DNA of 64,000 nucleotides. Source: an uncultured beta proteobacterium (GTDB lineage: Bacteria > Pseudomonadota > Gammaproteobacteria > Burkholderiales > Burkholderiaceae_D). This document shows positions 55,896-64,000 of the stretch, in pieces (position 1 is the first letter of the stretch; each line of letters starts with the position of its first letter). Under the pieces are notes generated by a model. The model did no database searches. It saw only the letters and a list, made by a program, of their open reading frames with translations, and had not been told where the DNA came from. The DNA is taken from contig CAVPQU010000020.1 of the NCBI GenBank assembly GCA_963707665.1, positions 7,615 to 71,614 of the forward strand, read 5' to 3'. The position numbers and the translations under genes were made by a program.

Positions 55896-56813
55896 TTAGG
55901 GCAGCCATTGCATCTCCGGCGAATTACCCATCAGGAACGCCCGGTTCGGTTCGATCGCCTCGCGCAGGTAACTCCACAACGCCGACACCCGCGCCACATG
56001 CCGGTGTTCACTGGCGGCCACCAGCCAGAACGAGCGCAGGATCCGCACCTGCTCATCCAGCACCGGCACCAGGTCGCGGCTTTGCTGGGCCAGGAAACAC
56101 GGCAGGATCGCCAGCGCCTGGCCGTTGCGCGCCGCCGTGTATTGCGCGATGACGCTGGTGCTGCGAAAACAGCGGAACGCGCCCGGCGCGATATTTTCCT
56201 CGTAGCGCAGCTTCGGGCTGAAGATCAGATCATCGACATAGCCGATCAGCGGATGCTGCGCCAGGTCCTGCTTGTCGCGGATTGGCGCATGCGTCGCCAG
56301 ATAGCCCGGCGTCGCATACAGTTTCAGCAGGTAGTCGGAGAGCTTGGCCACCACGTAGTTGCCGGTGGAAGGCCGTTCCAGCGTGACGACGACGTCGGCT
56401 TCGCGCTTGGATAAATTGACAAAGCGCGGCATCGGCAGCAGATCGACCGTGATGTGCGGATGGCGCTGGCAGAAATGCGCCAGATGCGGCGCCAGCACGA
56501 AGGTACCGAAAGCCTCGGTGGCGCCCAGCCGCACCTGGCCCGACAGCAAGCGGTTCTGGCCGCTCAATTCCTCGGTGGCGGCGTACACGGTGCTTTCGAC
56601 CTTTTCCGCATACGCCAGCAATCGATGGCCTTCCGGTGTCAGCACATAACCCTGGTTGTTGCGCTCGAACAGCTCGGTGCCGACCTGCTGCTCGAAGCGG
56701 CGCATGCGGCGCGATACCGTCGAGTGGTCGATGCCGAGCTTCTTGGCGGCATCCACCAGCCGTTCGCTGCGCGTCAGTTCCAGAAAAACCCGCAAATTAT
56801 CCCAATCCAGCAT
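55896..56813 (-). CDS. LysR family transcriptional regulator
   Basis: MLDWDNLRVFLELTRSERLVDAAKKLGIDHSTVSRRMRRFEQ HTH. Divergent from the SBP-mmsA-mmsB genes. Confidence 0.9.
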   Translation of the reverse strand: MLDWDNLRVFLELTRSERLVDAAKKLGIDHSTVSRRMRRFEQQVGTELFERNNQGYVLTPEGHRLLAYAEKVESTVYAATEELSGQNRLLSGQVRLGATEAFGTFVLAPHLAHFCQRHPHITVDLLPMPRFVNLSKREADVVVTLERPSTGNYVVAKLSDYLLKLYATPGYLATHAPIRDKQDLAQHPLIGYVDDLIFSPKLRYEENIAPGAFRCFRSTSVIAQYTAARNGQALAILPCFLAQQSRDLVPVLDEQVRILRSFWLVAASEHRHVARVSALWSYLREAIEPNRAFLMGNSPEMQWLP

Positions 56814-56848
56814 GGGTGTTTCCTTGTGCAGAAATGCAAATGGCATTG

Positions 56849-56879
56849 GCATTATTGCCTATTGAGGCGGCAATAATGC
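56849..56879. promoter_or_regulatory. Probable LysR-type operator (perfect inverted repeat) in the divergent promoter region
   Basis: GCATTATTGCC-tattgaggc-GGCAATAATGC. A TATACT -10-like hexamer lies at 56885-56890. Confidence 0.6.
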
Positions 56880-56926
56880 CCAACTATACTGGAATCCATA
56901 AAATCTTTACAACAACGGAGGAGATC

Positions 56927-58144
56927 ATGGGCACCAAAGCAGTGTTGCGTACCGCCTTGCTGGCGGCTTTGTCAGTATGGGGCGCCAGCGCCGGCGCGCA
57001 GATATCCAATGACGTCGTCAAGATCGGCATCCTGACCGACATGTCGGGGCCGTATTCCGGCATGGGTGGTGTGGGTTCGGTGGTGGCCGCCAAGATGGCG
57101 GTCGAGGATTGCCTGAAAGCCGAATGCAAGGGCATGAAAATCGACGTGCTGTCGGCCGACCACCAGAACAAGGCCGATCTGGGCGCGACCAAGGCGCGCG
57201 AATGGATCGACACCGAGCATGTGGATGCGATCGCCGACCTGACCAATTCGTCGGTCGCGCTGGCGGTGCAGAAGCTGGCCAAGGAAAAAGGCGTGGTGGC
57301 GATGTTCAGCGGCCCCGCCACCACCAAACTGACCACCGAAGAATGCTCGCCGGTCGGCTTCCACTGGATGTTCGATACCTATTCGCAGGCGGTCGGCACC
57401 GCTGCGGCACTGACCAAGCTGGGCAATAAATCCTGGTATTTCCTGACCGTCGATTATGCCTTTGGCCACTCGCTGGAAAAGGATGCCGGCGATGTCGTCA
57501 AGGATCTGGGCGGCAGCATCAGTGGCGCGGTGCGCCATCCGTTGAATGCCAGCGATCTGTCCTCGTTCCTGATCCAGGCAAAGAATTCCAAGGCGCAGGT
57601 ATTGGGGCTGGCCAATGGCGGCCAGGACACGGTGAATTCGATCAAGCAGGCGCGCGAATTCGGGATTGGCGGCAAGGACGGGATGAAGATTGCCGCGTTG
57701 CTGGTCTTTCTGACCGACGTCCATGCGCTTGGCCTGGATACGGCCCAGGGCTTGATCTACGCCGATGGCTTCTATTGGGATTTCGATGATGGTGCGCGCA
57801 ACTTCGCGCGTCGTTTCGAAGCACTGCATAAAGGCAACAAGCCGACCATGGTGCAAGGCGGCGTGTATTCCAGCGTCTACCACTACCTGAAATCGGTGGC
57901 GGCGGCGAAAAGCGATGACGGCAAGGTGGTGGCGCAAAAAATGCGCGAGTTGCCGATCAAGGACCCGATCATGCACAACGCTTCGATCCGCGCCGATGGC
58001 CGCGTGATCCACGACATGTACCTGTATCAGGTCAAGACCCCGGCCGAATCGAAGGCGCCATGGGATTACCTGAAACTGCTGGCTACGATTCCGGCTCAAA
58101 CCGCTTTCAAGCCGATGGATAAAGCCTGTCCGCTGGTCAAGTAA
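56927..58144 (+). CDS. ABC transporter substrate-binding protein (branched-chain amino acid/amide type)
   Basis: Signal peptide MGTKAVLRTALLAALSVWGASAGAQ, then VKIGILTDMSGPYSGMGG. GGAGGAG RBS. Confidence 0.85.
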   Translation: MGTKAVLRTALLAALSVWGASAGAQISNDVVKIGILTDMSGPYSGMGGVGSVVAAKMAVEDCLKAECKGMKIDVLSADHQNKADLGATKAREWIDTEHVDAIADLTNSSVALAVQKLAKEKGVVAMFSGPATTKLTTEECSPVGFHWMFDTYSQAVGTAAALTKLGNKSWYFLTVDYAFGHSLEKDAGDVVKDLGGSISGAVRHPLNASDLSSFLIQAKNSKAQVLGLANGGQDTVNSIKQAREFGIGGKDGMKIAALLVFLTDVHALGLDTAQGLIYADGFYWDFDDGARNFARRFEALHKGNKPTMVQGGVYSSVYHYLKSVAAAKSDDGKVVAQKMRELPIKDPIMHNASIRADGRVIHDMYLYQVKTPAESKAPWDYLKLLATIPAQTAFKPMDKACPLVK

Positions 58145-58154
58145 CCCCCGTCGC

Positions 58155-58190
58155 TGGCACGCGCAACTTTGCGCGCGCCGGCGTTTTTTC
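58155..58190 (+). terminator. Probable rho-independent terminator/attenuator after the SBP gene
   Basis: GGCACGCGCA-actt-TGCGCGCGCC stem (one mismatch), followed by GGCGTTTTTT. Confidence 0.5.
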
Positions 58191-58219
58191 AATTTCGTTC
58201 ACTCATCTGGAGCAAAGTC

Positions 58220-59741
58220 ATGAATCAAGTTACCGCCAACGCCACAATCCGCGAAGTCCCGATGTTTATCGGCGGCAAGCGTGTGTCGTCCACCAGCAAG
58301 CAATGGCGGGACATCATCAACCCCGCCACTCAGGAAGTCGTGGCGCGCGTGCCGCTCTGCACCCAGGAAGAAATCGATCAAGCGGTGGCGAACGCGAAGG
58401 CAGCCTATGCAACGTGGCGCGAGACGCCGCTGGTGGCGCGCATGCGCATCATGCTGCAGTTCCAGCAGCTGCTGCGCGCCAACGTTGCCAAGATCGCCGA
58501 ACTGGTCACGTTGGAACATGGCAAGACCCTGCCGGACGCGGAAGGCGAAGTCATGCGCGGCCTGGAAGTGGTCGAGCACGCCTGCTCGATCACCTCGTTG
58601 CAACTGGGTGAAATCGCCGAAAACGTCGCCAACGGGGTCGATGTGTACACCATCAACCAGCCGCTCGGGGTTGGCGCCGGCATTACCGCTTTCAACTTTC
58701 CGATCATGCTGCCGTGCTTCATGTTCCCGATCGCGGTTTCCTGCGGCAATACCTTCGTGCTGAAACCGTCCGAACAGGACCCGTCCTCCACCATGCTGCT
58801 GGTCGAACTGGCGCATCAAGCCGGCTTGCCGGACGGCGTGCTGAACGTGGTGCACGGCAGTGCCGAAGTGGTGGACCAGTTGTGCGATCACCCGGACATC
58901 AAGGCGGTCTCGTTCATCGGCTCGACCCATGTCGGCACCCACGTGTACCAGCGTGCCTCGGCCGCTGGCAAGCGTGCGCAGGCCATGATGGGTGCCAAGA
59001 ACCATTGCGTGATCATGGGTGACGCCAACAAGGGCCAGGCGATCAACCATTTGATCGGCTCCGCGTTCGGCGCCGCCGGCCAGCGCTGCATGGCCAACTC
59101 GATGCTGATCCTGGTCGGCAAGGCGCGCGAATGGCTGCCCGAAATCGTCGCCCGCTCCAAAGAACTGAAAGTGAATTCCGGCTTGCACCGCGATGCCGAC
59201 CTCGGGCCGCTGGTATCCAAAAGCCGCCAAGACCCGCGTCGAACGACTGATCGATACCGGCGTCGAGCAAGGCGCCAAGCTGGTGCTGGACGGCCGCAAC
59301 TACCAGGTCAAGGACGCACCGCACGGCAACTTCGTCGGCCCGACCATCTTTACCGGCGTCACCACCAAGATGGATATCTATTCGCAAGAAGTGTTCGGCC
59401 CGGTGCTGGGCGTGATCGAAGTCGAGACGCTGGATGAGGCGATCCAGACCATCAACAGCAATCCGAATGGCAACGGCACCGCGATCTTTACCTCGTCCGG
59501 CTGGGCCGCACGCAAGTTCCAGCACGAAATCGATGTCGGCCAGGTCGGCATCAACCTGCCGGTGCCGGTGCCGGTCGCGTTCTTCAGCTTTACCGGTTCG
59601 CGCGCCTCCAAGCTGGGCGACCTCGGCCCGAACGGCAAGCAGGCGGTGCAGTTCTGGACCCAGACCAAGACCGTCACCGCGCGCTGGTTCGAACCGGATG
59701 AAGCGCATGGCGCGGTCAACACCACCATTTCGATGAAATGA
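58220..59741 (+). pseudogene. mmsA: CoA-acylating methylmalonate-semialdehyde dehydrogenase, one frame disruption
   Basis: FNFPIM, VLKPSEQDP, catalytic GQRCMA. The frame changes at about 59219-59222 inside TCCAAAAGCC, from LGPLVSK to [19 protein letters not shown].... One extra A in the run would explain it. Confidence 0.85.
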
Positions 59742-59773
59742 CGAGCTGCCACCTTACCTACGGAGACGCATGA

Positions 59774-60673
59774 ATGAGTACGCCAAGCAACGCGGAAATC
59801 GCCTTCATCGGCCTTGGCCACATGGGCTTGCCGATGGCCCAGAATCTGGTCAAGGCCGGCTTTGCGGTCAGTGGCCATGACCTGGTGCCAGCCGCAGTGG
59901 AAAAACTGGTGGCGGCCGGCGGCAGTACCGGCGCCGACGCCATGGCGGCGGTGGCCCAGGCCAAGGTCGTGATCACGATGCTGCCGGCCAGCCGCCACGT
60001 CGAAGCCTTGTATCTGGGCGACCAGGGTATCCTGGCTCACGCCCGCCCTGGCACGCTGTTGATCGACTGCTCGACCATCGCGCCGGACAGCGCGCGCAAG
60101 GTGGCGGCCGCCGCCGCCGAACGCGGTTTCGAGATGCTGGATGCGCCGGTTTCCGGCGGCACTGCCGGCGCCGCCGCCGGCACGCTGACCTTCATGGTCG
60201 GCGGCAGCGACGCCAGTTTCGCCCGTGCCAAGTCGTATCTGGAGCGCATGGGCAAGGCGATCTTCCATGCCGGCGCTTCCGGCAGCGGGCAGACCGTCAA
60301 GGTCTGCAACAACATGCTGCTCGGAATCCAGATGATCGGCACCTGCGAAGCGATCCGGCTCGGCATCGCCAACGGCATGGACCCGAAGGTGCTGTCGGAA
60401 GTGATGAACAAGAGTTCCGGCCGCAACTGGGTGCTGGACGTGTATAACCCCTGCCCGGGCGTATCGGAAACGGCGCCGGCCAGCCGCGAGTATCAGGGCG
60501 GTTTTGGCGTCGATCTGATGCTGAAGGACCTTGGGACTCGCGGTTGAAAACGCCCAGGCGACCGGCACCACCGTCGCGCTGGGCGAACTGGCGCGCACGC
60601 TATACCAGCAGCACAGCGAATCGGGTGCCGGCGGGCTGGATTTCTCCAGCATCTTCCGCGCGCCAAAAGCTTA
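59774..60673 (+). pseudogene. mmsB: 3-hydroxyisobutyrate dehydrogenase, one frame disruption
   Basis: IAFIGLGHMGLPMAQNL. The frame changes at about 60536, from LMLKDLG to LAVENAQATGTTVALGELARTLYQQH...RAPKA* ending at 60673. An extra a in GGGACTC would explain it. Confidence 0.85.
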
Positions 60674-60959
60674 GTTTTTCTTCTGTTTCTCCCCACTGGC
60701 AGCCGGATCGTTGGCCGCCAACCCGCTGCCGACGCCGCCAGAGAGCGACGCGGCGGCAGGATTTTTTCCTCGCCTTTACCGGACCGAAATGGCAGTTACG
60801 GAGCGGCCCGCGGCCGTCGCCTGGTCTGTCCCATCGACAGGATGACTGCAGCGAGGATGCGGACTGCCGCCTCCATCTGTTCCATGCCGAAGCCGCCCAG
60901 CCGGTACCATGGAAGATGGCCGACAGCCCGCGGAATACACGGACGAGCAGGAGATTTTT

Positions 60960-61316
60960 ATGAGCGATACCAGCGGTGATTTCATTTTTACCTGCCACGC
61001 CGACCTGCCCTGGACGCCGTCCAAGTTCGCGCGCGGCGTCGAGGTGAAAAACCTCGGCAAGGCCAATGGACGAGCGATGCAGCTGGTCCGCTTCCGGCCC
61101 GGCGCCTCGTTCCCGGCGCACCTGCACACGGACGCCGAATTCCTGTTCGTGCTGGACGGCGAAGTGATCCAGAACGGCCGCCGCCTGCATGCCGGCTGCT
61201 CCACGGTCGCGCCCGCCGGCAGCCGGGACAAGGAATTTATCAGCCCATCGGGCGCCACCTTCCTGCTGGTCTATGCCTTGAGTACCAGCGAAGGATTCAC
61301 CGTCCAGACAGACTAG
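60960..61316 (+). CDS. Cupin domain protein (ChrR C-terminal-like)
   Basis: ...QLVRFRPGASFPAHLHTDAEFLFVLDGEV... is a cupin His motif. Confidence 0.65.
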   Translation: MSDTSGDFIFTCHADLPWTPSKFARGVEVKNLGKANGRAMQLVRFRPGASFPAHLHTDAEFLFVLDGEVIQNGRRLHAGCSTVAPAGSRDKEFISPSGATFLLVYALSTSEGFTVQTD

Positions 61317-61395: not shown

Positions 61396-62013
61396 ATGTC
61401 CTTGTTCGCCTTCGCCATCGCCGCCGTCATCCTCGCCATCACCCCTGGCCCCGGCATTGCCTACGTCGTCGCCCGCACCGCCGCCGGCGGCCGCCCGGAA
61501 GGGCTGGCCTCGTGCTTCGGCACCGGCATCGGCGGCATGTTCCACGTCCTCGCGGCGGCGCTTGGCCTGTCGCTGATGGTCGCCCAGTCCGCCGCCGCCT
61601 TCAGCTTGGTAAAGTACCTCGGCGCCGCCTATCTGGTCTATCTGGGTATTCGTCTGCTACTGCGCCAGGATCGCGCGCTCGTGGCACCGCCAGTCGCTTC
61701 CCAAGGCGCCCGCCGCGCGCTGTTCGAAGGCATCGTCGTCGAAGCGCTGAACGTCAAGACCGCGCTGTTCTTCCTGGCGTTCCTGCCCCAGTTCGTCGCG
61801 CCGGACGCACCGCTGGTGCCGCAGCTGGCGCTGCTCGGAGGCATTTGCGTCGCGCTCAACACGCTGGTCGACGTCCTGGCTGTGTTCGCGGCGGATCGCC
61901 TGCTCAAGCCGAACGCCGCCCGCGCAGCGCGCGCCGGTCTGCTGACCAAGGCGTCGGGTGTGACCATGCTGGGGTTGGGGGCCTACTTGGCACTGGCGCG
62001 GCGGGAGGTTTGA
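61396..62013 (+). CDS. LysE/RhtB family amino-acid exporter
   Basis: MSLFAFAIAAVILAITPGPGIAYVVART..., about 6 TM helices. Confidence 0.85.
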   Translation: MSLFAFAIAAVILAITPGPGIAYVVARTAAGGRPEGLASCFGTGIGGMFHVLAAALGLSLMVAQSAAAFSLVKYLGAAYLVYLGIRLLLRQDRALVAPPVASQGARRALFEGIVVEALNVKTALFFLAFLPQFVAPDAPLVPQLALLGGICVALNTLVDVLAVFAADRLLKPNAARAARAGLLTKASGVTMLGLGAYLALARREV

Positions 62014-62306
62014 GCCGGCGTTGCGACGGAGTTGCGAAAGCGAGCAGGGAACTCGAACGTTGGTAGACTTCACTCGGTGTAACCGCAAAAGATATACAGG
62101 CGAATCATGCAGAACTAGGGCTTTCATGTTCAATAGTGAGACGGATGTGTTGGCTCATATTGGCGCGCGGCGCAGTTCGTCCAAAAACGGACATCAAACA
62201 TTGCACCACATTGCAGTCGTACAGTGTCTGTGATGTATCCTATTCGAGCAACGATAAGCAGTACGCAGCTCGTTCCGAAAGAAGCGTTTGACCTTTACGG
62301 TTCTCC

Positions 62307-62442
62307 GCCTAACTAGAAGGGAACAATATGCCGGCCATCGGTCGGAACTACTATAGGGAGAGCCATCGGGCCTGTCGTGTTCCGCGCCTATGGGACAGTT
62401 CCAAGGGTAGATGAAAATTTTGTCGTCTACTTCTAGTTGGGC
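62307..62442. repeat. 13-bp inverted repeat (1 mismatch) flanking a 110-bp segment upstream of the low-GC operon
   Basis: GCCTAACTAGAAG at 62307-62319 and CTTCTAGTTGGGC at 62430-62442. Confidence 0.8.
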
Positions 62443-62490
62443 GTACAGATAAAGTTCGAATGACGGATTTTAGAGTCAGGAGGGATTTAG

Positions 62491-62703
62491 ATGGAAGCAA
62501 TGTCGAATTGGATTATTTACAACAAAGAATGGTTGTTCTCAGGTGGCGGTATTGTGCTCGTCGCTTGGGTAGGGCGAATCCTTTTCAAGAGAATGCAGGC
62601 CTCGTCTACGCAGACTATCCGGTCGGGTGATAGCTCAAACAATGTTCAGGCAGGTCGCGACGCCTATATCGGAATTAAGAAAAAGAGCAACGATGTGGAA
62701 TAA
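62491..62703 (+). CDS. Small single-pass membrane protein (hypothetical), low-GC island
   Basis: AGGAGGG RBS. One TM helix (WLFSGGGIVLVAWVGRILF). C-terminal QTIRSGDSSNNVQAGRDAYIG motif. The stop overlaps the next ORF by 11 nt. Confidence 0.6.
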   Translation: MEAMSNWIIYNKEWLFSGGGIVLVAWVGRILFKRMQASSTQTIRSGDSSNNVQAGRDAYIGIKKKSNDVE

Positions 62704-64000
62704 GGGTAAGCAGGCAATTTCCGCAGGGGATCAGTCAACAAATGTGATCGCCGGTGGAGATGTCTATCTCAATCTTGGGGAAAATGTTCCGACGGAGCTT
62801 GTCGACCAAAAAATAGAAGAAGAACTTGAAAAACTGAAGAAGTCCCGATTCTTCGATGAGTTCGACACGACTGGATCGTCGTTGCGGCTTGGGAGACGTC
62901 TTGCAGAGGGGAATCTTTCGGGTGGGTCGGACGCAGTAAGGGGGCGGGCGTTGGCGTGGTGCGCCAGATTATTATCTCGTTCAGAGAATATCGAGAGGGG
63001 GGTAGAGTTTCTGAACTGCGCGAAAGACCTCGGAAATTTTGTAGAAGCCAGGATTGCAGAAGCATTTATTCTTTCCCAGAAGGGGGATAAGGCAGCATCA
63101 CTTAAGGCCCTTGCCGAGATCGATTCGGACGTTTCACATTCTGCTGGCTTGCTGATTGTGGCATATCATGACGGCGCCGAAGGCGCTCTAAGGTGGATGA
63201 ATGATGCGGGCTACACAGTCGGGAAGCTGGATTCGGACGGCAAGGGCTTTCTCTTAAGCCATCAGCTTCAACTCGGTCGTTGGGGCGATGTCGAGCAGAC
63301 GGCCGGTGCGCTTATCGAGGCGGACTTTGACGAGACTCCAGTTCTCCACCATTTGGCAGCTTTGGCAACGCTGTTGCCCACCGTCCCGCGGGATTTTCGC
63401 GCTATTGTTCTGACACAGGTTCCCTTTGAAGTGCGGGAATTTCCCCTAGCGTCAGATGCCGTTGCGATGGATGCGCGGCGTGCGGCTCACCAACACTTTC
63501 TCAATGCGGTTGAGGCCGCAAAGAAGTTGGCTTGTCCGGGCGCTGCGGGAACGGATGACGAGTATGCGCTTTGGCTCGAAATGCGCGACCCAGCGCAGAG
63601 CGCACACGGCAAGAACAGGTTGCAAAACAAACTTCGCGATTCAAACACCGCGCTCGGTTTCGTCCACTATGCACTTAAGTTCGGCATCAAATTGGACCTA
63701 GACGCAGTCGAACGGGATATTGAACGGAGTATCGCCATAAATGGTGGAATGACCATTGATGCTGCTATTGCTCGTTTCGCCCTTGCATTTACGCAGTCGA
63801 CTCCCGAGGAGGCGGCCAACTATATCTCCCGCTACCACAATCAACTCTCTGGCCACATCGATGCCAAACTGATGCGGCATCGTTATATCGAATTGCTTTC
63901 GCGCGCGGGTTTGATCGAGAGGGCGAACGAGGTACTCGACTGGCTGCTAGAAGAGGGAATCCCTGCTGAACAAGAAAATAGTCTCCGAAGGATTATTTCC
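62693..64000 (+). CDS. Large alpha-helical-repeat (TPR-like?) protein, N-terminal 436 codons; 3' end lies outside the window
   Basis: Absent from the ORF track because no stop is reached. ATG 62693 is open through base 64000 (1308 nt = 436 codons). The N-terminal QAISAGDQSTNVIAGGDVYLN motif matches the upstream small protein, and the rest is helix-rich. About 50% GC against about 65% in the flanks. Confidence 0.7.
   Translation, partial: MWNKGKQAISAGDQSTNVIAGGDVYLNLGENVPTELVDQKIEEELEKLKKSRFFDEFDTTGSSLRLGRRLAEGNLSGGSDAVRGRALAWCARLLSRSENIERGVEFLNCAKDLGNFVEARIAEAFILSQKGDKAASLKALAEIDSDVSHSAGLLIVAYHDGAEGALRWMNDAGYTVGKLDSDGKGFLLSHQLQLGRWGDVEQTAGALIEADFDETPVLHHLAALATLLPTVPRDFRAIVLTQVPFEVREFPLASDAVAMDARRAAHQHFLNAVEAAKKLACPGAAGTDDEYALWLEMRDPAQSAHGKNRLQNKLRDSNTALGFVHYALKFGIKLDLDAVERDIERSIAINGGMTIDAAIARFALAFTQSTPEEAANYISRYHNQLSGHIDAKLMRHRYIELLSRAGLIERANEVLDWLLEEGIPAEQENSLRRIIS

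Follow-up and report, generated by a model that had tools for sequence, protein, structure and literature searches.

A low-GC segment carrying an overlapping gene pair with a shared 22-residue motif, the predicted 5' end of a TPR-GreA/B-C-PIN-type conflict cassette

The last 2 kb of a 64,000-nucleotide (nt) stretch of DNA from an uncultured beta proteobacterium (contig CAVPQU010000020.1; this whole 64-kb stretch is here called the window) form a low-GC segment with two overlapping genes, one for a 70-aa membrane protein and one for a large helical protein that runs past the window edge. We consider it reasonably probable that this segment is the 5' end of a horizontally acquired three-gene cassette of ~5.9 kb, belonging to a predicted anti-phage abortive-infection family that is a variant of the TPR-GreA/B-C-PIN (TGP) systems, in which a sensor would activate a membrane protein by templating a motif that both proteins share. 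The evidence comes from the anatomy of the segment and its homology to complete cassettes, the sharing and conservation of the motif, its generality as a tag for other partners, a variable effector slot in related proteins, and the horizontal mobility of the cassette. Amyloid-type signalling has so far been shown in one bacterial anti-phage system, Bab/Agp, and the present locus suggests the same wiring with a simpler executioner, consisting of one membrane helix, and a differently built sensor.

Both proteins carry the motif, the small one at its C-terminus (QTIRSGDSSNNVQAGRDAYIG) and the large one at its N-terminus (QAISAGDQSTNVIAGGDVYLN). The two copies in the window are identical at 11 of 22 residues, and their Smith-Waterman score of 57 was reached by none of 2000 shuffles (28.9 +/- 4.4). 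A regular expression for the motif, applied to the six-frame translation of the whole window, gave exactly two matches, which are these two copies, and it also gave exactly two matches in each related locus tested. The positions Q, G, S, N, G and D do not vary in either partner across 19 loci, and the consensus is [ST]QTIRSG[DN]xSTN[VI]QAGRDVx[IF] in the small protein and KQSIS[SA]GDxSTN[VL]IAGRD[VI]N[LF] in the large one. The motif reads as three short segments between invariant glycines, with additional invariant Asn, Gln and Ser; S, G, I, N, Q and D abound in it, P, E, L and K are nearly absent, and both copies are disordered in AlphaFold2 monomer models. In length, composition bias and gene arrangement the motif agrees with bacterial amyloid signalling sequences (BASS) as defined by Dyrka et al., and from its composition, disorder and conservation it may form amyloid. 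Through this motif the sensor would probably activate the membrane protein in an amyloid-like templating process. Same-locus partners share 11.25/22 identities versus 10.60/22 for partners from different loci (permutation p 0.011), and when remote pairs were added 0 of 20000 permutations reached the observed same-locus similarity. This likeness would fit a need for matching motif sequences, the effect being small and uncorrected for shared ancestry.

The two genes overlap by 11 nt, as an earlier note on this DNA, made from its letters, had described, and translational coupling is likely because the ATG of the large open reading frame (ORF) sits inside the final codons of the small one. In 17 of 19 related paired loci the frame relation of the two ORFs is the same as in the window, with overlaps of 11-17 nt in close relatives and with the stop codon and the ATG kept; the other two loci (L004 and L017) have another frame and a 1-nt overlap. 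Since the arrangement is kept in 19 loci, the comparison indicates that the small and large ORFs are a functional pair and not a broken gene. In L056 and in the metagenomic protein P0001, the transmembrane (TM) module is fused in frame to the sensor. P0001 (723 aa) retains both motif copies in tandem, while in L056 (9728-13762) the second copy is degenerate, and these proteins may serve as "all-in-one" comparators. A programmed +1 frameshift joining both ORFs was considered and rejected, given that the junction (GAA-UAA-G) lacks a recognisable +1 slippery context and that two loci with a different frame relation contradict it. An A-rich run upstream of the junction would support a -1 shift only, leading to the wrong frame.

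The small protein has the single TM helix and strong ribosome-binding site that the earlier note had ascribed to it, the latter an AGGAGG at 62479-62484, 7 nt before the ATG. Its AlphaFold2 model, built from a 32-sequence alignment, contains helices at residues 2-10, 12-15 and 18-38, the last of which is confident (predicted local distance difference test, pLDDT, ~90), and residues 39-70 were modelled as low-confidence coil with a tail pLDDT of ~50. The TM helix extends over approximately residues 14-38 and bears the invariant signature NKEWLFSG.G. Charged residues are found ahead of the helix (E2, K12 and E13) and behind it (K33, R34 and R44), and because of this distribution and the positive-inside rule the protein is predicted to lie N-out/C-in, with its motif-bearing tail facing the cytoplasm. 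In the 32 homologues, which go down to 47% identity, N11, W14, F16, S17, G18 and G20 are invariant in the membrane module, and Q41, I43, S45, G46, S49, N51, Q53 and G55 are invariant in the motif.

No Pfam match was found for the small protein. Its N-terminal module matches the start of the PADLOC candidate PDC-M43A (E 6e-6 and 1e-6), the first ~50 profile positions corresponding to the TM-plus-motif module; however, the PDC-M43A profile has 203 positions and only its N-terminal quarter matches. PADLOC, proposed in the earlier note as a check on the genes of the segment, gave this partial match for the small protein and only an insignificant match to NsnC for the large ORF. A search with the small-protein profile against 1.84 billion representative proteins recovered 311 clusters when E<=1e-10 was required and 1629 when the limit was E<=1e-3, clusters being defined at 50% identity. 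Most members of this family stand alone and measure 57-90 aa, while in some longer proteins the same module forms the beginning; Pfam scans of these longer TM-plus-motif proteins detected only Band_7 and HEPN fragments, which are possibly gene-call fusions.

The large ORF can be read for 436 codons, and the absence of a stop inside the window agrees with what had been noted before. In the AlphaFold2 model of this fragment (mean pLDDT 88.3), residues 1-27 are disordered, with pLDDT below 50, and residues 34-436 form uninterrupted all-alpha helical hairpins of a TPR/PPR-like solenoid with pLDDT ~93. Foldseek searches against the PDB returned only alpha-solenoids (designed PPR proteins, IFIT5, LGN TPR and APC/C subunits), and the best matches, to designed PPR, IFIT5 and LGN TPR, scored weakly (E 5e-4 to 1e-2) and with low TM-scores, which is common for solenoids. 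The helix-rich, TPR-like character that had been read from the translation was therefore recovered in the model. Pfam and NCBIfam gave nothing on the window fragment. A search of 5.8 billion proteins recovered 80 homologues of the large ORF, the best of them 76% identical; none has a Pfam annotation over the region matching the window, and some carry terminal HNH, esterase or HTH_upst_double_PIN domains. Weak Pfam TPR matches were also found in large-protein homologues. No NTPase domain was detected in the window part or in full-length relatives, and PDB sequence searches with these relatives found nothing.

Complete relatives were found in a genome scan that took one genome per species, which gave 61 loci from many phyla and one archaeal metagenome-assembled genome (MAG), with no locus more than 78% identical to the 436-residue part. 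Over their full length, the 436 residues of the window are 58-78% identical to the N-terminal part of proteins of 1266-1310 aa. Two forms of the relatives were observed: a gene of 1266-1310 codons followed by a gene of ~642 codons that overlaps it by 4 nt, or a fusion of the large and 642-aa proteins with 1900-2240 residues. The closest genome is that of Salinisphaera sp. PC39 (L066), with 78% identity over the 436 residues. Its large protein matches PF24407 (HTH_upst_double_PIN) at residues 668-737 (95.8 bits; cut-off 27) and PF20698 (PIN-TPR-GreABC) in two stretches (54 bits; cut-off 27.8), and the next protein, of 642 aa, matches PF24388 (Permuted_GreAB-C; 40.5 bits; cut-off 27). PF20698 was found in full-length relatives that are 74-78% identical over the window part. 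The GreA/B C-terminal domain is a module that binds the secondary channel of RNA polymerase.

Because full-length relatives carry PF24407 and PF20698 and are followed by a PF24388 protein, the family of the large ORF is, by these domain matches, a variant of the TGP system, and the window gene is predicted to continue intact past base 64000. The relatives' cassette comprises three genes in ~5.9 kb, in accordance with the view of the earlier note that most of the system lies beyond base 64000 and belongs to a conflict or defence type. Its description as a two-gene module needs to be extended to three genes, and "uncharacterised" no longer applies, since the relatives match three curated Pfam TPR-GreAB-C-PIN families above their cut-offs. 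The motif shared by the two proteins, which is the principal clue to how the cassette would work, was not among the observations of the note. The apparent lack of a catalytic motif holds for the part inside the window, whereas the full-length relatives have two PIN nuclease domains downstream. A match to a well-characterised family had been named as a finding that would speak against the conflict interpretation; the sensor subfamily is indeed catalogued through Pfam domain models, yet RefSeq still lists its members as "hypothetical protein" and the subfamily is known from sequence alone. Plasmid-borne members are among those annotated "hypothetical protein" in RefSeq, so that such genes now become recognisable as a three-gene cassette. 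The locus also provides a new TGP sensor family for studying how hijacked transcription is detected.

The N-terminal position of the large protein is variable among the 61 loci. It is occupied by an HNH domain (identified as HNH_2 in the alignment) in ~27 loci, a DUF676 serine esterase in three, a calcineurin-like phosphoesterase (Metallophos) in one, a TIR_2 domain in one, other domains without assignment in four, and the TM-plus-motif module fused in frame in one. Nineteen of the 61 loci have the same arrangement as the window, with the bare motif at the start of the large protein and a separate upstream gene for the small TM-plus-motif protein; the rest are truncated or interrupted. As judged from these alignments, the N-terminus of the family is a swappable slot for HNH, TIR, esterase, phosphoesterase or a short tag, and since other members carry lethal HNH, TIR or esterase domains there, it would hold effectors rather than localisation signals. 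Two N-termini without a Pfam match were observed, one with a hydrophobic helix and a Thr/Val/Gly-rich stretch fused in frame (L028:9635-10006) and one with an Asn/Gln-rich stretch (NETINHNTHNGNQSIIARNITGSTIMQYY) in Cohnella faecalis (L037:9866-10150), and these might be different signalling tags.

Three remote members of the small-protein family were looked up for their partners. The gene of P0268 (L069:769-2021) has a 1-nt overlap with that of a 351-aa Vpar_1526 (PF28206) protein starting MNGQVQKQESGDSSTNLQGQTINITQG, and P0282 (L071:3801-5043, also L072 and L073) has an 11-nt overlap with another Vpar_1526 protein, starting MSDKQTQKSGDGSVNIQARDIQLG. In the third case, P0273 (L070:389-2305), a 65-aa TM protein with a C-terminal tag is followed by a 227-aa Abi_alpha (PF14337) protein and a 349-aa Vpar_1526 protein, both with N-terminal tags, an arrangement that would place two candidate sensors beside one effector within the same operon. 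The Vpar_1526 partners, all of which start with the motif, are proteins of unknown function. In L071 and L072, the P0282 pair sits between a Fic gene and a large serine recombinase.

These gene pairs indicate that one tag links one type of membrane protein to at least three unrelated partners, namely TGP-like TPR/PIN, Vpar_1526 and Abi_alpha proteins, and they hint that this templated signalling mode is far commoner than published cases suggest. A broader proposal, which we put forward tentatively as possible rather than probable, is that the 70-aa protein represents a large family, so far without a name, whose members are minimal executioners, each a TM helix with a signalling tag, that plug, through one beta-arch-type motif, into at least three unrelated sensor families. 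If true, amyloid-like templating in bacterial immunity would be independent of Bell or HeLo-type domains, it would be far more widespread and phylogenetically broader than Bell/NLR and Bab/Agp suggest, and a bare transmembrane helix would be enough as a death effector.

Base composition and distribution point to horizontal acquisition. The 2-kb block 62001-64000 has a GC fraction of 0.518, the lowest among the 32 blocks of the window (0.58-0.70 in the other 31), and the block directly before it has 0.661. In 300-nt windows, GC changes from 0.70 (61700-61999) to 0.51 (62000-62299) and then stays at 0.46-0.58 up to 64000, with the change coinciding with the stop codon of an ORF at 61396-62013 that encodes a LysE-type exporter (Pfam PF01810, E 5.8e-27); the drop after lysE was thus correctly read in the earlier note, as was the foreign origin of the DNA. 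The cassette has 51-55% GC in Salinisphaera, where the flanks have ~70%, in the window, where the host has ~63%, and in L067, where the flanks have ~50%, with 78-83% nucleotide identity from one of these unrelated hosts to another. Its spread is sporadic, including Pseudomonadota, Desulfobacterota, Latescibacterota, Bacillota, Cyanobacteriota, Acidobacteriota and one archaeal MAG, and no nucleotide match to the cassette was found in complete E. coli genomes.

In the window, L066 and L067 the cassette lies among metabolic genes, with no integrase or mobile-element gene adjoining it. At other loci it has been found near NgoMIV-type restriction-modification genes, a RES toxin gene, a HEPN/DUF499 system, integrases and recombinases. 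On the conjugative Agrobacterium fabrum plasmid pAtN33_94 (L075, 17711-24216), a pair of "hypothetical proteins" of 1529 and 639 aa, 33% identical to the window part, is located between integrase/VapBC genes and a type I restriction enzyme gene (HsdR). The large gene is broken by two copies of IS3-family elements in a Nitrospirales genome (L002:10322-13684) and by an IS200-type Y1 transposase in L004 (10126-10383), and these insertion sequences (IS) part the TPR region from the HTH/PIN region.

The TGP systems were defined by comparative genomics as a constant TPR/GreA-B-C/PIN core preceded by one of many effectors or an adaptor, and were proposed to act on virus-hijacked RNA polymerase, the effector at the N-terminus serving as a back-up that kills the cell (Kaur, Iyer, Burroughs, Aravind 2021, PMC8195603). 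The present family resembles them in its constant TPR, PIN and GreA/B-C core, as found in relatives, in its variable N-terminal effector or adaptor, and in its sporadic occurrence in bacteria with rare archaeal members. HNH and TIR effectors are named in PMC8195603, and esterase and phosphoesterase were observed in the present family. The systems described there are mostly stand-alone genes with an EAD10 adaptor or fused enzymes, whereas the present locus has a short non-helical motif as adaptor, a separately encoded effector and a GreAB-C domain that is usually on a separate gene. Only the tag and the TPR part of a TGP protein are visible in the window, the PIN and GreAB-C parts being assigned from relatives.

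The closest tested analogue of the locus is the Bab/Agp pair of E. coli ECOR25, which provides amyloid-signalling abortive infection against phage T5 (Ibarlosa et al., bioRxiv 10.1101/2024.11.07.622273). In that study, Bab (109 aa) is composed of a Bell-like helical domain ("Babybell", ~80 residues) and a C-terminal BASS11 motif, Agp (1094 aa) has the layout TPR-GreA/B-C-PIN with the motif at its N-terminus, and the motif peptides of both form amyloid fibrils. Infection with T5 led to Agp-dependent motif assembly and the movement of Bab to the cell periphery, and protection was lost with proline (beta-breaker) substitutions in either motif or with mutations in GreA/B-C (bioRxiv 10.1101/2024.11.07.622273). 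The present locus is similar in having adjacent collinear genes, a small upstream protein with an N-terminal hydrophobic helix and a ~22-residue C-terminal motif, and a large downstream TGP-class protein that begins with the same motif followed by a TPR region; in both cases the motif contains much G, N and Q and lacks order in the monomer, and the pair is found in foreign or defence-type DNA. However, the present effector has 70 aa, a single TM helix and only ~38 residues before the motif, with no Bell or "Babybell" bundle, and relatives of its sensor are TPR-HTH-PIN-PIN proteins whose permuted GreAB-C belongs to a 642-aa protein that is either separate or fused at the C-terminus. Bab/Agp has been studied by experiment, while the present subfamily has so far been seen in sequence data. 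Because the Bab residues named in the paper cannot be threaded in register, the present motif is probably not BASS11 but a different motif family, a distinction drawn from the few residues named in the paper text.

Bacterial amyloid signalling pairs were described as collinear, often overlapping genes, in which a membrane-targeting protein has the motif at its C-terminus and a receptor has it at its N-terminus (Dyrka et al. 2020, bioRxiv 10.1101/2020.01.06.895854). The locus agrees with the operational definition of the Bell/NLR pairs with BASS1-10 (a motif of ~25 residues, collinear or overlapping genes and the same composition bias), but its receptor has no NB-ARC or NACHT NTPase, its effector has no Bell domain, and its hosts extend beyond multicellular Actinobacteria and Cyanobacteria. 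Comparison with HET-S/NWD2, an amyloid-controlled cell-death system of the fungus Podospora anserina, where the N-terminal motif of a receptor templates the same motif on a membrane-targeting executioner, is by analogy only. One beta-solenoid rung could accommodate the repeat length of ~21-22 residues and the segments bounded by Gly; however, there is no sequence relationship, and HET-S has a HeLo domain and two pseudo-repeats, with an NLR as receptor. The literature search found no paper on the sensor subfamily paired with a single-helix effector by a shared tag, or on the wide partner use of this effector. With two ~22-residue peptides and a 70-aa protein, the locus offers a compact test case for the minimal needs of templated membrane-effector activation.

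By analogy with these systems, membrane killing, RNA polymerase sensing and an anti-phage role are predicted for the cassette. The large sensor, predicted to be cytoplasmic, and the GreAB-C protein would detect infection at the transcription machinery, and upon detection the sensor would oligomerise, so that its N-terminal motifs could fold into a beta-arch, amyloid-like nucleus. This nucleus would recruit the membrane protein and convert its matching motif by templating, and the clustered transmembrane helices could then permeabilise the membrane, causing the infected cell to die or stop growing.

Several observations weigh against this proposal. In Bab the killing helix is sheathed by a Bell-type helical domain of ~80 residues; the small protein has no such domain, which raises the question of how a bare TM helix would stay harmless before activation. 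The named BASS11 residues (I87-G88-S89-V90, Q92, D99 and N100 of Bab; N12 of Agp) do not fit the present motif in register, and the pair-specific covariation is small and confounded by shared ancestry. Only homology indicates the PIN and GreAB-C parts, and truncation or interruption of the gene is conceivable at this locus, IS elements having interrupted it in L002 and L004. No PADLOC model matches the large proteins of the cassette, and searches for the cassette gave no matches in phage genomes and only three in plasmids. Finally, the in-frame fusions in P0001 and L056 would suit a small protein that acts as a plain membrane anchor just as well.

The main rival explanation builds on this last point. 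It accepts the same family and defence role, and regards the motif as a non-amyloid docking element (for example, by beta-strand pairing), the small protein as a constitutive membrane anchor and the PIN nucleases as the effector. Natural fusions of the TM module to the sensor fit it equally well, longer proteins that begin with the TM-plus-motif module and continue with other domains also speak for it, and the PIN domains of the relatives are a built-in candidate effector. It explains less well the lethal HNH, TIR and esterase domains at the same N-terminal position in other members, the disorder of the motif in both monomer models together with a composition and Gly/Asn/Gln pattern as in beta-arch signalling motifs, and the fact that the small partner is the executioner in the tested analogue Bab/Agp; on balance, we regard the docking explanation as unlikely. 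An addiction or lysis module (toxin-antitoxin or holin-like), in which a small toxin is restrained by the large protein with no sensing of phage, appears considerably less probable. The translational coupling of a small, hydrophobic membrane protein to the gene downstream, the toxin-antitoxin genes and recombinases adjoining some loci, and the horizontal spread would all suit such a module, but no known antitoxin comes near a sensor of 1266 aa plus 642 aa that combines TPR, HTH, two PIN and GreAB-C domains, a separate toxin in need of neutralising is missing from members with fused HNH or TIR, and no mobile-element gene lies beside the cassette in the window, L066 and L067.

PIN and GreA/B-C domains are also found in ordinary RNA processing and transcription factors, and the neighbours of the cassette in the window, L066 and L067 are metabolic genes, which could suggest a housekeeping or regulatory module of RNA metabolism (a TPR scaffold, a PIN RNase and an RNA-polymerase-binding factor) with no role in conflict. 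This is very improbable in view of the sporadic multi-phylum distribution with near-identical cassettes in unrelated hosts, the foreign GC, the swappable lethal N-terminal domains, the repeated disruption by IS elements, and the absence of the cassette from a relative sharing 85% identity over the neighbouring mmsAB region. The explanation to which we give the least credence is that the two ORFs are one gene split by a frameshift, as a pseudogene or an assembly error, and that the pair is an artefact. The large ORF is indeed in +1 relative to the small one, so that a 1-nt change would fuse them, fused versions exist in P0001 and L056, and the same window has a probable frameshift in mmsA. Nevertheless, the same frame relation and an 11-17 nt overlap with stop and ATG are found in 17 loci with 50-78% protein identity from different phyla, two more loci are split in another frame, and free-standing small proteins of 57-90 aa, in at least 311 clusters, pair with other partner families via similar overlaps.

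Table 1. Features of the low-GC segment at the end of the window
Feature	Position	Strand	Description
Left edge of the foreign segment, with the leader/promoter region of the cassette	62014..62490	+	GC drop starts at 62014
Small gene, putative effector, 70 aa	62491..62703	+	Short N-terminal helix, one TM helix, basic KR anchor, C-terminal tail
Motif copy 1, small-protein residues 40-61, TQTIRSGDSSNNVQAGRDAYIG	62611..62676	+	Alignment, regular expression
11-nt overlap, ATGTGGAATAA	62693..62703	+	Start codon of the large ORF within the last codons of the small ORF
Large gene, putative sensor, first 436 codons, open at the window edge	62693..64000	+	ATG at 62693, no stop to 64000
Motif copy 2, large-protein residues 6-27, KQAISAGDQSTNVIAGGDVYLN	62711..62776	+	Alignment, regular expression

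The region between lysE and the small gene measures 477 bp, as had been reported, and contains only mechanical ORFs. No tRNA, no Rfam family above threshold and no convincing promoter or terminator were detected within it. About 315 bp of this leader (62176-62490) show patchy, weak similarity to L067:9692-10000 in a MAFFT alignment, for example at window positions ~62130-62290. The leader homology to L067 is regarded as weak because a stand-alone blastn search with the leader found no match, and the leaders contain no conserved ORF or known RNA family.

Upstream of the segment, the window was compared with a relative (L074) that shows 85% nucleotide identity across mmsAB and is syntenic with window positions 55902-60656. 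The cassette is absent from this relative, the only close one found, which has other genes after the point matching 60656. Synteny already ends there, 1.36 kb before the GC drop, and the comparison with island-free relatives that the earlier note had proposed therefore does not set the boundaries of the insertion. The loss of synteny directly behind mmsB shows that what follows this gene is variable, and that the variable region is larger than the low-GC segment. A cupin-like ORF (60909-61316) and lysE have host-like GC, yet both are absent from L074, which carries GGDEF/EAL and two-component genes in their place. The methylmalonate-semialdehyde dehydrogenase gene (mmsA) appears divided in the window between two ORFs that overlap and differ in frame (58169-59437 and 59193-59741); the former ends with an Arg/Pro-rich nonsense tail, pointing to a single-base frameshift at ~59200 that may reflect a pseudogene or an assembly error. 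L074 likewise has a short Aldedh gene followed by a gap.

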